From the IMG/VR virus record IMGVR_UViG_2541047931_000013: a stretch of DNA of 7,842 nt. One strand, written 5' to 3'. This document shows, in pieces, positions 3,402 to 7,748 of this stretch. The notes under the pieces are model-generated. The model was not told the DNA's origin. It did no database searches and saw nothing but the letters and a program-made list of their open reading frames with translations. Position 1 is the first letter of the stretch. Each line of letters begins with the position of its first letter. The stretch is from a virus. Lineage: Duplodnaviria; Heunggongvirae; Uroviricota; Caudoviricetes. The translations under genes and the position numbers were made by a program.

Positions 3402-4431
3402 CGATCCGAACGTTACAGAAAGAAAAAGCGCCCCGTTGCTGGATAACAGGCAAAACAAAGGCGACCGGGATAGGTCGCCAGTGGGAACAAAGGAAATCAA
3501 ACGCATCGCCAACAATGCCAGATTTGCGGCTGGTGGGCAATGTGATCAGTGTGCTGGCTTGCTGGTGGGCTATTCCTGCTCTTTAGCATCGCCATACTGC
3601 GATGTTTTCCAGGTATGCGATTCCATTTTTGTGCGCCTGTACTCTTTTAAGAACTTCTCAAGGACAAACGCACATGGCGCAAATCTTTCCTGTTCTTGTT
3701 CGCTTACCGCATTTTTGCGTTGTTTTTTCCTGGATGAGGATAATTTCTTTAATGATTTGTCAGTCATCGTAGATACCTGTAACCCTGTGCGCCACAGTTC
3801 ACCGCACCACGGCGCTGGTGATGGTTACTCCTGCTCTTTGGCCTTCCGGCGCTGTTCATATTTTAATTTGCGTCCACAGGCATCTAAGACCCATGCGGAA
3901 AAATTAGCACTAGGATTAGTTAATTTTTCTTGTTCAACACTGGCATCAATCCCATCTATAAGCTCGTGCGGGAATCGAATATTTTTCTTTGCTGATTTGT
4001 TGTTTGTGTTTCCGCTAGACATTGGTACACCTCACTTAAATGGATTTGATGGGCGCACACAATACAGCAAAAAAAGTGAGAAGTTAAGTATTGACATGTG
4101 CGCACACATGATTTTAATCTGTGCGCACAGTTTGGGTTGCATTGCTCAAATTAAGCAACGCCCCGCAGTGCTCGCAACACATGCAGGGCGTCTAACCACC
4201 AACGATAGAAAGCGTATCGAGGTAGCTATGTTAAATCATACCACACACCCGCAAGGGCGGGACTCGCACAACCTGAATAAATACATCTGGCGTTTTATCG
4301 CCCTGAGCACCGCACAACCACGCGTAATACACATCGAGGCCGCCAGCGAACAGGAAGCCCGTCAGCAATCCCCGGCTGGCTGCGTGATGGTATTTACTGC
4401 CCGCATCCGTCAGGGGGAATACTATGCGTGA
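3394..4431 (+). CDS. alternative model: long + strand ORF (345 aa), possibly a shadow of - strand genes; mutually exclusive with the - strand small ORFs and with the 4228 start
   Basis: ATG at 3394 with SD GGAGGG 8 nt upstream, overlapping the Bro-N stop (ATGTGTAA). Frame open for 345 codons. The product is about 5% Cys and F/S/L-rich in its middle part, which looks like antisense translation of K/E/A-rich coding. Confidence 0.25.
   Translation: MCNDPNVTERKSAPLLDNRQNKGDRDRSPVGTKEIKRIANNARFAAGGQCDQCAGLLVGYSCSLASPYCDVFQVCDSIFVRLYSFKNFSRTNAHGANLSCSCSLTAFLRCFFLDEDNFFNDLSVIVDTCNPVRHSSPHHGAGDGYSCSLAFRRCSYFNLRPQASKTHAEKLALGLVNFSCSTLASIPSISSCGNRIFFFADLLFVFPLDIGTPHLNGFDGRTQYSKKSEKLSIDMCAHMILICAHSLGCIAQIKQRPAVLATHAGRLTTNDRKRIEVAMLNHTTHPQGRDSHNLNKYIWRFIALSTAQPRVIHIEAASEQEARQQSPAGCVMVFTARIRQGEYYA
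3445..3479 (-). terminator. putative Rho-independent terminator for - strand transcripts
   Basis: Perfect 7-bp GC-rich stem GGCGACC (3460-3466) / GGTCGCC (3473-3479) with 6-nt loop. On the - strand it is followed by UUUGUUUUG. No T-tract on the + strand side. Confidence 0.4.
3570..3767 (-). CDS. small basic protein (65 aa), paralog B of a tandemly duplicated pair; possible DNA-binding protein
   Basis: ATG at 3767-3765 with AGGT 7 nt upstream. C-terminal AKEQE shared with the 3825-4022 product. An interrupted inverted repeat CTGTG-CGC-CACAG (3785-3797) lies just upstream. Confidence 0.35.
   Translation of the reverse strand: MTDKSLKKLSSSRKKQRKNAVSEQEQERFAPCAFVLEKFLKEYRRTKMESHTWKTSQYGDAKEQE
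3825..4022 (-). CDS. small protein (65 aa), paralog A; putative ribbon-helix-helix-like repressor divergent from the replication operon
   Basis: ATG at 4022-4020 with GAGGTG SD 5 nt upstream. KNIRFPHELIDGID...NFSAWVLDACGRKL has a strand-helix-helix layout resembling CopG/Arc-type proteins. Candidate -10 TATTGT / -35 TTAACT on the - strand at 4059-4064 / 4082-4087. Confidence 0.4.
   Translation of the reverse strand: MSSGNTNNKSAKKNIRFPHELIDGIDASVEQEKLTNPSANFSAWVLDACGRKLKYEQRRKAKEQE
4053..4130. promoter_or_regulatory. back-to-back divergent sigma70-like promoters overlapped by palindromic operator-like sites
   Basis: + strand: -35 TTGACA (4091-4096), 16-bp spacer, -10 TTTAAT (4113-4118). Perfect palindromes TGTGCGCACA (4097-4106, in the spacer) and CTGTGCGCACAG (4119-4130, over the predicted start). 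Half-site GCGCACA at 4053-4059 overlaps the predicted - strand start. Confidence 0.5.
4228..4431 (+). CDS. small protein (67 aa), first gene of the replication operon; possibly Icd-like (unverified recollection)
   Basis: ATG at 4228 with SD GAGGT 4 nt upstream. Product MLNHTTHPQGRDSHNLNKYIWRFIALSTAQPRVIHIEAASEQEARQQ... has ordinary composition. Its stop overlaps the next start. About 100 nt downstream of the predicted + promoter. Confidence 0.45.
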   Translation: MLNHTTHPQGRDSHNLNKYIWRFIALSTAQPRVIHIEAASEQEARQQSPAGCVMVFTARIRQGEYYA

Positions 4432-4681
4432 TGAACGATTTATTCTTCTGGAGCAAAAATTCAGTGAAGCGCCAAAAAATGAAATTGATGCTCTTTTGCA
4501 TATCGCGAATATGCTAAAAGTAGCAACGTTCCTTATAGTTTCGAATCTGGAGCATGAAACGGCGTTAGATATACTGAACAGTGCTGTCGATTATTCTGAA
4601 TATATTGCCGAGGATAAATACAGGCAATTACCAGATTTGTTAGCCCATAAATATAAAGAAGAACCTCACACCGGGAAATAA
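4424..4681 (+). CDS. hypothetical protein (85 aa), low-GC
   Basis: ATG at 4424 with SD AGGGGG 6 nt upstream, overlapping the upstream stop. Sample lines hand-count at roughly 35-38% GC. No family recognised. Confidence 0.55.
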   Translation: MRDERFILLEQKFSEAPKNEIDALLHIANMLKVATFLIVSNLEHETALDILNSAVDYSEYIAEDKYRQLPDLLAHKYKEEPHTGK

Positions 4682-4683
4682 AC

Positions 4684-4986
4684 ATGAAGAAGATTAAATT
4701 TACTGGCTTAAATGCCAGCGGACAGACTCACCCGAAAATCAGGATCGGGGATATTTTCCGGGATAAATATGGTGACAGCGTGGTTATTAATTCCGTGTAT
4801 GAACGGCACATTACATACCGCCGCGCAGGGTACGACTATGACTGTGTGATGCCCGTTCATCAGTTCCGGCGTGATTTTTCACTGGTATGTGCAGCACCAC
4901 GCAGTAAGCCCACCAGTAAAGAGAAAGCACGGGCAAATATTCAGGTAATAAAGAACATGATTAACGCATTCAGGGGCAAGAAATGA
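4684..4986 (+). CDS. hypothetical protein (100 aa), low-GC; possibly DUF4222-like (unverified)
   Basis: ATG 2 nt after the upstream stop; weak SD GGGAA. Its stop overlaps the helicase start (ATGA). IGDIFRDKYGDSVVINSVYERHITYRRAGYDYDCVMPVHQFRRDF is vaguely familiar from small proteins next to island primase genes. Confidence 0.55.
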   Translation: MKKIKFTGLNASGQTHPKIRIGDIFRDKYGDSVVINSVYERHITYRRAGYDYDCVMPVHQFRRDFSLVCAAPRSKPTSKEKARANIQVIKNMINAFRGKK

Positions 4987-7109
4987 AACGCGCACCGAAT
5001 TTAAAGCACCAGCCGAAAGACAAAATGACGGAGGTGATTATCTTTGCGGGTAGTGATGCCTGGGCACATGCGAAAGAGTGGAGCGAATGGGCCGGAAAGC
5101 ATATTGCGGCAGATGATACACATCCAGTTATTCTTGGACCGGAACAACTGGCGAGTCTGGCAGACACGCAAATCATCGACAAAGGGCGCTATTACGTGCG
5201 CGTTTATCGTGCTGGTGAAATATCAGAGCAGCACCTTACACAGATAGCGACACTGCTTGCAGTGGCGGGTGTGAAGGAGGCGCGTTGCTACCGCAGCTTT
5301 GTTGATCAGCAGCCGGAGGACTGGACACCGCGCATGGCTGGACTGAAGGATGATGCGGAACGCGGTAACAGTCTGGTGATCAACCTTCCGGCGAAGACAA
5401 ATTTCACCGGAAATTATGATGACGAATTAAAGCCTCGTGTTGAAAGTCGCGTCGATGGTGTTTTCTGGGTAACGCCCAAAGTGGACAAGCAGTCAGGCGA
5501 AATTATCCGGCCTGAGACGTGGTTATGTTCTCCGCTTGAACTACTGGGAACAGGAACAATCGGCAAAGAGCATTACCGCGTGATGCGCTGGAAAAAACCA
5601 GCAAACCATGAGGTCATTACAATGGCGGTCCCGTGCGGAGGCATTGGTGACCGTGACGGCTGGCGGTTGCTGAAAGACCACGGCCTTAACGTGACGACCA
5701 ACGGCAAATACAGGGCTATCTTGGCTGACTGGATGCAGTTAAGCGGAAACCATGAGGAATGGCAGTTAAGCACAACAACGGGGTGGCATTTTGGTGCGTA
5801 CATCATGCCGGATGGTTCGATCATCGGTGAATCAGAGAAACCCATCCTGTTTACCGGAAAAACTGCCGCTGTTAATGGCTATTCCGTGGCGGGAACAGCG
5901 GAGGGCTGGCGCGATACCGTGGCACGGCTGGCTGGTGGTAATCCGTCCATGATGCTGGGTGTGGCGGTATCGCTATCTGCACCATTAATCGGGCTGGTGG
6001 GTGCTGACGGCTTCGGGGTTCATCTTTTTGAGCAATCATCAGCAGGTAAAACCACCACACAGAACATTGCATCAAGTTTATGGGGAGAGCCGGACGCGCA
6101 ACGGCTGACCTGGTACGGAACGGCGTTAGGTATCGCCAACGAGGCCGAAGCACATAATGACGGGCTGTTACCCCTGGATGAAATAGGCCAGGCCGGAAAC
6201 GCACGGGAGGTGTCCACGTCAGCCTATACGCTGTTTAACGGTTCCGGGAAATTACAGGGGGCGAAGGACGGCGGCAACAGGGAGATAAAACACTGGCGTA
6301 CGGTGGCAATCAGCACCGGAGAAATGGACGTTGAAACATTCCTCAAAACGGAAGGGATAAAAATTAAAGCGGGACAGCTTGTCCGTCTGCTTAACGTACC
6401 GATGGAAAAGGCCTCGCAGTTTCACGAATACAGCACCGGAAAGGCGCACGCAGACGCGTTAAAAGATGCCTGGACAGAAAATCACGGGGCGGCAGGTCGT
6501 GAGTGGGTTAAATGGCTGGCAGGCCACCAGCAGGAGGCAAAGGACGCGGTAAGGGCATGTCGCGAGCGGTGGCGCAACCTGATACCGGAGAGCTACGGCG
6601 AGCAGGTTCACCGTGTGGGGGAAAGATTCGCCGTACTGGAGGCCGCGCTTGTGCTTTCCGGTCATGTTACAGGCTGGGATGTTCAGGCGTGCCGTGATGC
6701 AGTTCAGCATAACTTTAATGCCTGGGTGAAGGAATTCGGCACGGGCAACAGGGAATTTAAACAGATGGTTGAACAGGCTGAGGCGTTTTTGTCGTCGTTC
6801 GGGTTCAGTCGATACCTTCCCTATCCAAACAGCGACGAGCGTGATTTACCGATTAAAGACCTTGCCGGATACAGAAAGGGGAGTATCAGAAACGAAGATG
6901 ACGAGTTCCGTTTTTACACGTTCCCGCATGTGTTTGAGGGTGAGATAGCACAGGGATTTAATCCGTCTCACTTTGCCCGCGCGTTGAGTGCAGCCGGAAT
7001 GCTGGAAGCGGGAGGCGACCGCCGTTACAAGAAAAAGGCGCTCGGCAGGATTGGCGGGAAGCAGCATATTTTTTACGTGCTGATGTTCCAGCCTGAAGCA
7101 GAAGATTAA
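4983..7109 (+). CDS. replication primase/helicase-like protein (P4 alpha-like / DUF927-type, SF3-type P-loop NTPase)
   Basis: 708-aa ORF at about 55-63% GC. Walker A-like FEQSSAGKTT (about 6021-6059) and Walker B-like LLPLDEIGQ (about 6160-6190). SD AGGGG lies 6 nt upstream. Overall resemblance to replication proteins of enterobacterial integrative elements. Confidence 0.85.
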   Translation: MKRAPNLKHQPKDKMTEVIIFAGSDAWAHAKEWSEWAGKHIAADDTHPVILGPEQLASLADTQIIDKGRYYVRVYRAGEISEQHLTQIATLLAVAGVKEARCYRSFVDQQPEDWTPRMAGLKDDAERGNSLVINLPAKTNFTGNYDDELKPRVESRVDGVFWVTPKVDKQSGEIIRPETWLCSPLELLGTGTIGKEHYRVMRWKKPANHEVITMAVPCGGIGDRDGWRLLKDHGLNVTTNGKYRAILADWMQLSGNHEEWQLSTTTGWHFGAYIMPDGSIIGESEKPILFTGKTAAVNGYSVAGTAEGWRDTVARLAGGNPSMMLGVAVSLSAPLIGLVGADGFGVHLFEQSSAGKTTTQNIASSLWGEPDAQRLTWYGTALGIANEAEAHNDGLLPLDEIGQAGNAREVSTSAYTLFNGSGKLQGAKDGGNREIKHWRTVAISTGEMDVETFLKTEGIKIKAGQLVRLLNVPMEKASQFHEYSTGKAHADALKDAWTENHGAAGREWVKWLAGHQQEAKDAVRACRERWRNLIPESYGEQVHRVGERFAVLEAALVLSGHVTGWDVQACRDAVQHNFNAWVKEFGTGNREFKQMVEQAEAFLSSFGFSRYLPYPNSDERDLPIKDLAGYRKGSIRNEDDEFRFYTFPHVFEGEIAQGFNPSHFARALSAAGMLEAGGDRRYKKKALGRIGGKQHIFYVLMFQPEAED

Positions 7110-7132
7110 CTTCCCTGTGTGAGGTAAAAAGT

Positions 7133-7257
7133 TGCGGGTTATGCGGGTTATCCTGTGCATAAGTTAATTAACTGAATGATTAAAAAGGAAATTAATAACC
7201 CGCACGTAACCCGCAAAACGGCAGTTATAACCCGCAAATGTGCGATTGTAACCCGCA
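7133..7257. repeat. iteron array around an AT-rich core; putative replication origin
   Basis: 9-mer TGCGGGTTA twice in tandem (7133-7141, 7142-7150). Its reverse complement TAACCCGCA four times (7196-7204, 7207-7215, 7228-7236, 7249-7257; spacings 11, 21, 21 bp). The AT-rich stretch 7151-7195 between the two sets contains the palindrome GTTAATTAAC. Confidence 0.55.
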
Positions 7258-7319
7258 AAATTTCACTGTAAGAGTGTAAACAAGCGTAACTATCACGTTA
7301 AAACCGGAGAACAAACAGC

Positions 7320-7748
7320 ATGACGGCGCAAATATCAGCTTACGGGCGGCTGGTGGCTGACCCGCAGTTAAAGACCACCAGCAAGGGCACACAAATGGCG
7401 ATGGCGAGTATGGCGGTCCCCCTTCCATGCAATCAGACAGATGACGGAACGGCGACGATGTGGTTATCCGTCCTGGCGTTTGGCAGACAGGCTGACGCAC
7501 TGGCAAAACACCACAAAGGCGAACTGGTGAGCGTGGCCGGTAACATGCAGGTGAGCCGGTGGACGGGCCAGAACGGCGAAACGAGGCAGGGATGGCAGGT
7601 TATCGCAGACAGCGTAATCAGTGCGCGAACGGCGCGACCGGGCGGCAAAAAAGGCCAGCAGGGGCAGGCTACTGATGCACTGAACAGGGCAAAGCAACAG
7701 ACAGGCCAGCACGATGATCTGAACCGCCCCGGGAATCCTGGAGACTAA
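7320..7748 (+). CDS. SSB-like (OB-fold single-stranded DNA-binding) protein, 3' end disrupted by IS insertion; native sequence ends at 7719
   Basis: AYGRLVADPQLKTTSKGTQMAMASMAV...WLSVLAFGRQADALAKHHKGELVSVAGNMQVSRWTGQNGETRQGWQV matches the SSB OB-fold pattern. SD GGAGA lies 9 nt upstream. From codon 134 the ORF reads into the IS inverted repeat and stops at 7746-7748. Confidence 0.7.
   Translation: MTAQISAYGRLVADPQLKTTSKGTQMAMASMAVPLPCNQTDDGTATMWLSVLAFGRQADALAKHHKGELVSVAGNMQVSRWTGQNGETRQGWQVIADSVISARTARPGGKKGQQGQATDALNRAKQQTGQHDDLNRPGNPGD

Follow-up and report, generated by a model that had tools for sequence, protein, structure and literature searches.

A candidate Arc/Mnt-style repressor switch before the replication operon of an EcCICFT073-type phage satellite

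The control region among described repressor systems

In the immI region of phage P22, the ribbon-helix-helix (RHH) repressors Mnt and Arc act at the divergent Pant and Pmnt promoters, and in lambdoid phages the imm cassettes, comprising a repressor gene and its operators, are exchanged as a block. This study concerns a 205-bp control gap (positions 4023–4227) in the IMG/VR virus record IMGVR_UViG_2541047931_000013, where "the window" denotes the full 7842-bp stretch analyzed. The gap separates a leftward gene for a 65-aa protein of the DUF3950 (YlcI/YnfO) family (3825–4022) from a rightward operon containing an icd-like gene and a primase gene. Comparison of related loci suggests that this region is probably an Arc/Mnt-style repressor switch over back-to-back promoters, placed before the replication operon of a phage satellite.

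The closest mechanistic analogue appears to be P22 immI. As in P22, the repressor predicted here is a small RHH protein (53–82 aa across the systems) whose gene would be autoregulated, the promoters stand back to back a few bp apart, and the operators, short and symmetric, are placed within the spacer and across the -10/+1 positions. Moreover, the island strand NIRFPHE resembles NLRWPRE of Arc, and one sister type matches the Pfam Arc family at a sub-threshold E = 0.0057. The two differ in that one repressor is assigned to three sites here, whereas two repressors have one site each in P22, and in that the island operon has genes for an Icd-like protein and a replicase where P22 has one for an antirepressor; further, no curated Arc/Mnt family was matched at threshold, and one element is a satellite, the other a phage. 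The resemblance to the lambdoid imm regions lies in the mosaic arrangement, since the DNA-reading part and the operators swap together between constant flanks and many specificities occur in one population. However, the island repressor is predicted to be of RHH and not helix-turn-helix (HTH) type, the cassette is only ~0.3–0.6 kb, and a second regulator resembling Cro was not apparent.

The preliminary description of this DNA had compared the region with the Stl-type repressor region of staphylococcal islands. The Stl/Rpr repressor genes of the Staphylococcus aureus pathogenicity islands (SaPIs) and Gram-positive phage-inducible chromosomal islands (PICIs) lie, like the small gene here, divergent from the replication operon, between the int and pri/rep sides, with a presumed role in quiescence (PMC6092414), and the comparison stands with respect to position, orientation and presumed role. 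It does not extend to the protein: Stl is a much larger HTH protein relieved by a helper-phage protein (PMC6092414), whereas the island product is a 65-aa protein of predicted RHH type, unrelated in sequence and fold, and no Stl/Rpr homology was found for it. Unlike the relief of Stl, induction of Gram-negative islands has been reported to proceed via the activator AlpA, and the global repressor in Gram-negative PICIs was called 'unclear' in a 2018 paper (PMC6092414).

Promoters, repeated sites and the covariation of the sites with the 65-aa protein

The elements of the control gap were located by a repeat search and by conservation among orthologues, the promoters being assigned on consensus and conservation only, and the site units were read as 12-mers following the register of the wider family.

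4049–4060: candidate operator O1, ATGGGCGCACAC, overlapping the -10 element and start of the leftward promoter P(-)
4096–4107: candidate operator O2, ATGTGCGCACAC, occupying the spacer of the rightward promoter P(+) over its first two thirds and abutting the -35 element
4119–4130: candidate operator O3, CTGTGCGCACAG, overlapping the end of the -10 element and the predicted rightward start (~4127)
4091–4096, + strand: -35 element of P(+), TTGACA; TTGAC is invariant in 7/7 orthologues (identity 1.00)
4115–4120, + strand: -10 element of P(+), TAATCT, after an 18-bp spacer; register conserved in orthologues
4059–4064, - strand: -10 element of P(-), TATTGT; register TA[T/C]N[G/C]T conserved in 7/7 orthologues
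4082–4087, - strand: -35 element of P(-), TTAACT, 17-bp spacer; semi-conserved (mean identity 0.60) and the weakest assignment
4030–4033, - strand: Shine-Dalgarno sequence GAGG of the candidate repressor gene, separated by 7 nt from the downstream ATG (4022); CCT columns conserved in 7/7 orthologues
3825–4022, - strand: candidate repressor gene, 65 aa, DUF3950 (YlcI/YnfO) family, predicted RHH protein

With one mismatch at most, TGTGCGCACA matches the window three times, at 4050, 4097 and 4120, all within 81 bp; shuffled windows contained 0.47 matches on average, and three were reached in 2 of 200 shuffles. The start-to-start distances are 47 bp for O1–O2 and 23 bp for O2–O3, and O1 is identical to O2 at 11 of 12 positions.

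The preliminary description had proposed a repressor-controlled switch on these grounds, and its elements were all found in place (TTGACA, 4091–4096; TGTGCGCACA, 4097–4106; TTTAAT, 4113–4118; CTGTGCGCACAG, 4119–4130; GCGCACA, 4053–4059; and the interrupted repeat CTGTG-CGC-CACAG, 3785–3797). Three of its readings needed revision, the third, on the interrupted repeat, being treated with orf2 below. The near-consensus rightward promoter keeps its invariant TTGACA, but TTTAAT with a 16-bp spacer lies 2 nt off the conserved TAATCT with 18 bp, and the promoter scan did not call TTTAAT because the A at position 2 is missing. The 'third half-site' GCGCACA was correctly located at the divergent promoter, but it is not a half-site, being part of the full 12-mer O1.

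The conservation of these elements was examined in orthologues sharing the predicted DNA-reading strand SAKKNIRFP (residues 10–18 of the 65-aa protein). All 14 such loci, from at least five genera, keep three TGTGCGCACA-type sites of the form nTG[T/G]GCGCACAn; their offsets to the repressor ATG are ~26, 73 and 96 nt and their spacings 47–48 and 23 bp; the orthologous proteins, from Serratia, Rahnella, Enterobacter, Klebsiella and an AT-rich metagenome contig, are 58–79% identical. The Citrobacter loci with the same strand (P0043) were uninformative, carrying an insertion sequence (IS) element in place of the upstream region. Among seven distinct orthologous intergenic regions, mean pairwise identity was 0.84–0.91 for the three sites and 1.00 for the + strand -35 element, compared with 0.43 for the other columns (site vs non-site columns, Mann-Whitney p = 1e-9), so that the palindromes are kept while their flanks diverge. 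The O2–O3 spacing is 23 bp in 7/7 orthologues. The O1 offset is occupied by a site in all of the SAKKNIRFP-type orthologues, whose palindromic core is perfect in Serratia, Rahnella and Klebsiella and imperfect in E. coli. A hexamer of the form NANNNT follows the -35 element by 18 bp in 7/7 orthologues (TAATCT, CATGCT, CATACT, CAAGGT, TATACT), the -35 elements of the two promoters stand back to back with 3 bp between them, and the counterpart of the P(-) -10 hexamer in the 59-aa subfamily is TATACT. Repeated sites thus cover core elements of both promoters in registers and spacings conserved across seven orthologues, which gives strong comparative support to back-to-back promoters overlapped by putative operators.

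For a wider comparison, loci were collected with the Icd-like protein as anchor, which gave 80 loci from viral contigs in addition to E. coli loci; when species-representative genomes were scanned with the Icd-like alignment, one locus only was obtained. The covariation set comprised 93 loci, in which 45 different proteins and 24 different N-terminal strands of 9 residues were counted. In all collected loci, the small leftward ORF (open reading frame) starts 136–205 nt upstream of the icd ATG, and the plan of the gap is constant: a site by the leftward -10 element, an A-tract, TTGAC or TTGAA, a spacer site, a -10-like hexamer, a start-point site and a conserved leader. TTGAC or TTGAA is retained before the variable operator in nearly all long-intergenic types.

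The sequence of the repeat itself varies by type, with essentially one own motif per strand at the same positions (24 types, 93 loci). The strands SQTVAARVP and SKKLEARVP go with GTGTTCAACAC and GTGGCTGACAC, respectively, the close relatives YKGIRFP and QKKIRFP with GTGTTTAAACAC and GTGTACCCCCAC, and LKKGIRFP of Pasteurella with GTG-N6-CAC variants. The own 10-mer was present at least twice in 90/92 loci, and a foreign motif at least twice in 104/2944 combinations, all but one type pair being types that share a strand. Of 5426 complete E. coli genomes, 69 contain the specificity type of the window, each in a single copy.

These data also bear on whether the palindromes might be RNA or DNA hairpins (a terminator, attenuator or processing site) and not protein sites. 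The stretch 4095–4110 on the + strand (CATGTGCGCACACATG then ATTTTAAT) was flagged as terminator-like, but the orthologues conserve sequence and not merely pairing, many sister types carry asymmetric 11-mers, direct or inverted, that are incapable of forming hairpins, and the stems are just 5–6 bp. The terminator-like call was rejected as a hairpin function on these grounds, and such an explanation is highly improbable.

Mosaic islands distinguish which gene accompanies the site type. In the locus L008, the backbone is nearly identical to that of the window (alpA 100%, bro 99%, orf85 99%, DUF4222 100%, primase 100%), and both the small protein and the repeats differ, within a swapped block of ~3540–4160. 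Conversely, four loci (L030, L042, L057 and L075) have only ~3830–4400 in common with the window and carry the same protein and the same sites together with other orf2, Bro, DUF4222 and primase alleles. The mosaic loci rule out AlpA, Rha/AntA, Bro, orf2, orf85, DUF4222 and the primase as specificity determinants; in particular, AlpA, Bro, the primase and other flanking genes cannot be the determinant because the near-identical L008 backbone carries a swapped cassette. The gene at 3825–4022 is the only one that always accompanies the site type. Because the site sequence co-varies with the N-terminal strand of its product and with no other gene, this product can be assigned with good confidence as the putative regulator of the sites, which the preliminary description had left without a name. 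Together, the repressor gene and its operators would be a specificity cassette that can be exchanged as a unit, and the family would have at least 24 specificities.

Another factor could still be imagined to bind the sites, such as AlpA, the primase or a replication initiator using them as iterons, or a host or helper-phage protein, the small gene being a hitch-hiker. Linkage co-inherits adjacent loci, AlpA is a known regulator of these islands (PMC6092414), and repeats do occur in satellite origins. However, L008 combines identical AlpA, Bro, DUF4222 and primase with different repeats, the same repeats occur with primases that are 45–86% identical and with differing Bro and orf2 alleles, and a host or helper factor leaves unexplained why 24 motif types track the strand of one island protein in genera as far as Pasteurella. 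Binding by such a factor is very unlikely.

Concerning the protein itself, family cut-offs were passed for PF13132 (28.3 bits vs 25) and NF041551 (59 bits vs 30), phrog_949 was matched at 9e-28, and 115/115 homologue clusters contain PF13132 or are named YlcI/YnfO. The fold model, a single-chain monomer of moderate confidence, has an N-terminal strand followed by two helices (beta-alpha-alpha) and is superposable on solved RHH domains. A significant sequence match to a curated RHH family was not found (best in the RHH clan, HicB_lk_antitox, E = 0.22), nor was any match in a PDB sequence search at E <= 10 or in an HTH family search; hhalign against Arc gave a probability of only 5.5%, and the sister types stay sub-threshold for HicB (0.0027) and RHH_1 (0.02) as they do for Arc. 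Because the sequence evidence is sub-threshold, the RHH assignment depends on the model and on the NIRFPHE-helix-loop-helix pattern. An Arc-like alignment would presumably place strand residues 12, 14 and 16 toward the DNA; R16 is invariant among homologues and GTG...CAC ends are common to most motifs, which would fit such an alignment. The tracking of the motif with a 9-residue strand across 24 types lends indirect support to an RHH dimer whose paired strands would read the major groove of the repeats.

Several side observations on this family were made. Alleles of 99–106 aa (L004, L016, L029, L048, L056, L059 and others) carry a ~40-residue insertion (…ARRQAEGSGENPLVSSLDALAQVEK…) before the conserved tail. 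Lambda-like phages (lambda, DE3, Stx phages) have a YlcI/YnfO homologue, 43% identical and mostly unannotated, near the right genome end. Over-long Icd-like coding sequence (CDS) calls on the opposite strand span the intergenic region and sometimes the repressor gene (L002 3052–3456; L004 2877–3395; L104 4435–5109; L105 3634–4608), and such annotations hide the real small gene in several records. In the phage records L104 and L105 they are labelled 'transcriptional repressor' or 'hypothetical protein', the former also being the PHROGs name for the Icd-like family. The label 'transcriptional repressor' in Pasteurella phage Pmp7 was rejected for the RHH gene, since it belongs to the over-long Icd-like CDS on the other strand.

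Island context and proposed regulation

By its gene content, the window appears to be part of an EcCICFT073-type phage satellite, namely a PICI-like island. It is 99.9% identical to an island beside the tRNA-Gly gene in E. coli SCU-105, which starts with int, a hypothetical gene, an AlpA-type HTH gene, Rha/AntA-AntB and Bro-N, followed by the leftward orf2 and YlcI/YnfO genes and by the rightward genes for the Icd-like protein, the 85-aa ORF, DUF4222, the DUF927 primase/helicase, SSB, ProQ/FinO and PerC. This order, namely int, alpA, a regulatory zone, primase/replicase, SSB and PerC, is that of Gram-negative PICIs, and the island is integrated at tRNA-Gly and is free of genes for phage lysis or tails. 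The prototype of these islands, EcCICFT073 (NC_004431.1), agrees with it gene by gene, from int and alpA through two leftward small genes, an icd-like gene, DUF4222, primase and SSB to PerC, and its leftward YlcI/YnfO gene (L103 9474–9653) faces the Icd-like gene across the same intergenic layout with its own repeats, GTGGGCCACAC; it differs in belonging to another specificity type. In EcCIMP1, an Icd-like gene is present with no annotated YlcI gene, and an ash pseudogene lies upstream.

In the mechanism proposed here, the 65-aa RHH protein would bind, as dimers, the three 12-bp sites with the core TGTGCGCACA. With O2 and O3 occupied, RNA polymerase would be kept out and the icd-like/DUF4222/primase-helicase/SSB operon would stay silent as long as the island is integrated. 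O1 would be a slightly weaker site over the divergent -10 element and start, and the repressor may limit its own synthesis because of this position. The repressor gene and operators would act as a swappable cassette, like a lambdoid immunity region. Upon induction, AlpA-driven rightward transcription from the alpA-rha-bro operon could continue across the convergent repressor gene and operators and enter the replication operon, which is possible because no + strand terminator was found between the alpA-rha-bro operon and the convergent repressor gene; alternatively or additionally, Rha/AntA/Bro may serve as anti-repressors. As a speculation, such read-through would make a repressor compatible with the AlpA-dependent induction described in print.

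Activation of an adjacent promoter is known for some RHH proteins, for instance Mnt at Pmnt. The small protein might likewise bind the sites and activate the rightward operon, or be an accessory factor of excision or replication, and P(+), with a weak -10 element and an 18-bp spacer, might need such help. The sites, however, lie in the P(+) spacer and on the -10/+1 region, which are polymerase-excluding positions, and the operon opens with a putative cell-division inhibitor and includes the replicase. Such an operon must be silent when integrated, because uncontrolled replication of EcCICFT073 impairs growth (PMC6092414). Activation or an accessory role is thus quite unlikely, and repression by the small protein remains the preferred reading.

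Several points weigh against a repressor switch. The -10 elements TAATCT and TATTGT appear weak and the 18-bp spacer of P(+) suboptimal. The repressor gene adjoins the operators, and this physical adjacency alone would lead to some co-inheritance by linkage. The induction of EcCICFT073 has been explained via the activator AlpA with no repressor invoked (PMC6092414). Finally, the support throughout is comparative or predicted.

The DUF3950 (YlcI/YnfO) RHH protein is also put forward, tentatively and with rather less than even confidence, as the missing master repressor of Gram-negative PICIs including EcCICFT073, which would define at least two dozen 'immunity' specificities via exchangeable cassettes and be overridden by AlpA induction through read-through or Rha/AntA/Bro. 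An RHH repressor on divergent promoters is a textbook mechanism; its assignment to the DUF3950 family and to these satellites appears to be new. The searchable literature contained no functional description of this protein or these sites, no RHH repressor here and no mention of the small gene of EcCICFT073 and its sites, and no function was attached to DUF3950 in any source examined. YlcI/YnfO is listed only as a 'prophage-associated protein' in a 2026 survey (PMC13612085), and immunity RNAs have been proposed in the Bro zone (PMC10111431). If the assignment holds, it would assign a role to a domain that is found widely in Enterobacterales and Pasteurellaceae, supply a concrete candidate for what silences these satellites, and reveal an immunity-type diversity that possibly governs which satellites coexist or are co-induced. 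The small orthogonal repressor/operator pairs might also be useful as synthetic-biology parts.

The leftward transcript, the rightward operon and neighbouring features

Downstream of the repressor gene, the leftward transcript would continue through a second small gene to a terminator-like hairpin.

3570–3767, - strand: orf2, 65-aa basic protein, phrog_21027 (unknown function)
3460–3479, - strand: terminator-like hairpin of 7 pairs, 6 of them G-C, followed by the T-run TTTGTTTT

The gene orf2 is probably co-transcribed with the repressor gene, and the hairpin would end the repressor-orf2 transcript; a T-run was looked for after the hairpin on the + strand and none was found. The preliminary description had related the interrupted repeat CTGTG-CGC-CACAG (3785–3797) to the palindromes. 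It does sit 18 nt upstream of orf2, but it does not belong to the site set: loci of four other repressor types, which have the orf2 allele in common, carry it, and four loci whose repressor is of the window type lack it. As its distribution follows the orf2 allele and not the repressor allele, it was rejected as a fourth operator; its resemblance to the operators looks coincidental, or the repeat may serve orf2.

A two-gene arrangement raises the question of a toxin-antitoxin or addiction module, in which the small protein would be an RHH antitoxin autoregulating itself with orf2 as toxin, any control over the replication operon being a by-product. Against this, orf2 had no Pfam, NCBIfam or toxin family match, whereas a type II module has an obligate partner toxin of recognisable family. 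Several types lack it altogether (L005, L017, L024 and most of the short-intergenic loci), its alleles show no linkage to the operator or RHH repressor type, and it is the core of the rightward promoter, and not of the leftward one, that carries two of the three sites. This interpretation is unlikely, and a repressor of the replication operon remains favored. Separately, orf2 and the repressor (3825–3860, - strand) share the C-terminal end ...KEQE, and the basic tail RRQRRKAKEQE is conserved, with the DNA just past the stop codon, among otherwise different repressor types, which looks like a recombination joint for cassette exchange.

The rightward operon is preceded by a structured leader.

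4129–4222, + strand: leader of the rightward transcript, predicted fold of -31.8 kcal/mol, z = -1.98
4129–4152, + strand: 5' hairpin of the leader (fold prediction)
4158–4191, + strand: covarying hairpin with double changes at 6/15 consensus pairs (51 sequences), followed by an invariant UCUAACCACCAACG
4203–4219, + strand: hairpin CGAUA-N7-UAUCG, abutting the Shine-Dalgarno sequence
4219–4222, + strand: Shine-Dalgarno sequence GAGG, last element of the leader
4228–4431, + strand: Icd-like protein, first gene of the controlled operon (NCBIfam NF033153, 68.6 bits vs 25; RefSeq annotation)
4424–7748, + strand: rest of the operon, namely the 85-aa ORF, DUF4222, DUF927 primase/helicase and SSB (Pfam matches; RefSeq annotation of the identical island)
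4983–7109, + strand: DUF927 primase/helicase
7320–7748, + strand: SSB

The leader (4156–4227) is ~88–90% conserved in more than 1400 E. coli genomes, recognisable in Pasteurella and far more conserved than the operators; the part comprising the Icd-like gene and leader was found in 1429/5426 complete E. coli genomes. An Icd-like ORF opening the operon and a structured conserved leader are shared with P1/P7 immI (c4 RNA-icd-ant) and with P4 CI RNA (PMC10111431). Unlike in those systems, no C4/isrK/CI-like RNA of Rfam (RF01695, RF01394) was matched at E <= 1 over the window or at E <= 10 on 4090–4450, and a predicted protein repressor with DNA operators is present here. The sole Rfam match of the leader was a weak full-length one to R1162-like antisense RNA (18.3 bits, gathering 55, E = 0.79). 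A role in the translation or processing of icd is conceivable for the leader. In the loci from Serratia and Rahnella, the icd-like gene is followed by one that matches Pfam PF25738 ('Derepression'; L096 815–1105, L097 837–1106). Far from the control gap, 656–698 on the - strand forms a GC-rich hairpin with a weak Rfam match to CRISPR-DR10 (21.4 bits, gathering 39, E = 0.39), probably by chance.

No recognisable capsid, terminase or rpp-like gene was seen in the 25 kb inspected. Downstream of the window, at the place of the EcCICFT073 capsid genes, this island has three consecutive large ORFs (L001 17846–25193; 843, 686 and 918 aa) without a Pfam or PADLOC match, which could represent cargo not yet characterised, such as a defence system.

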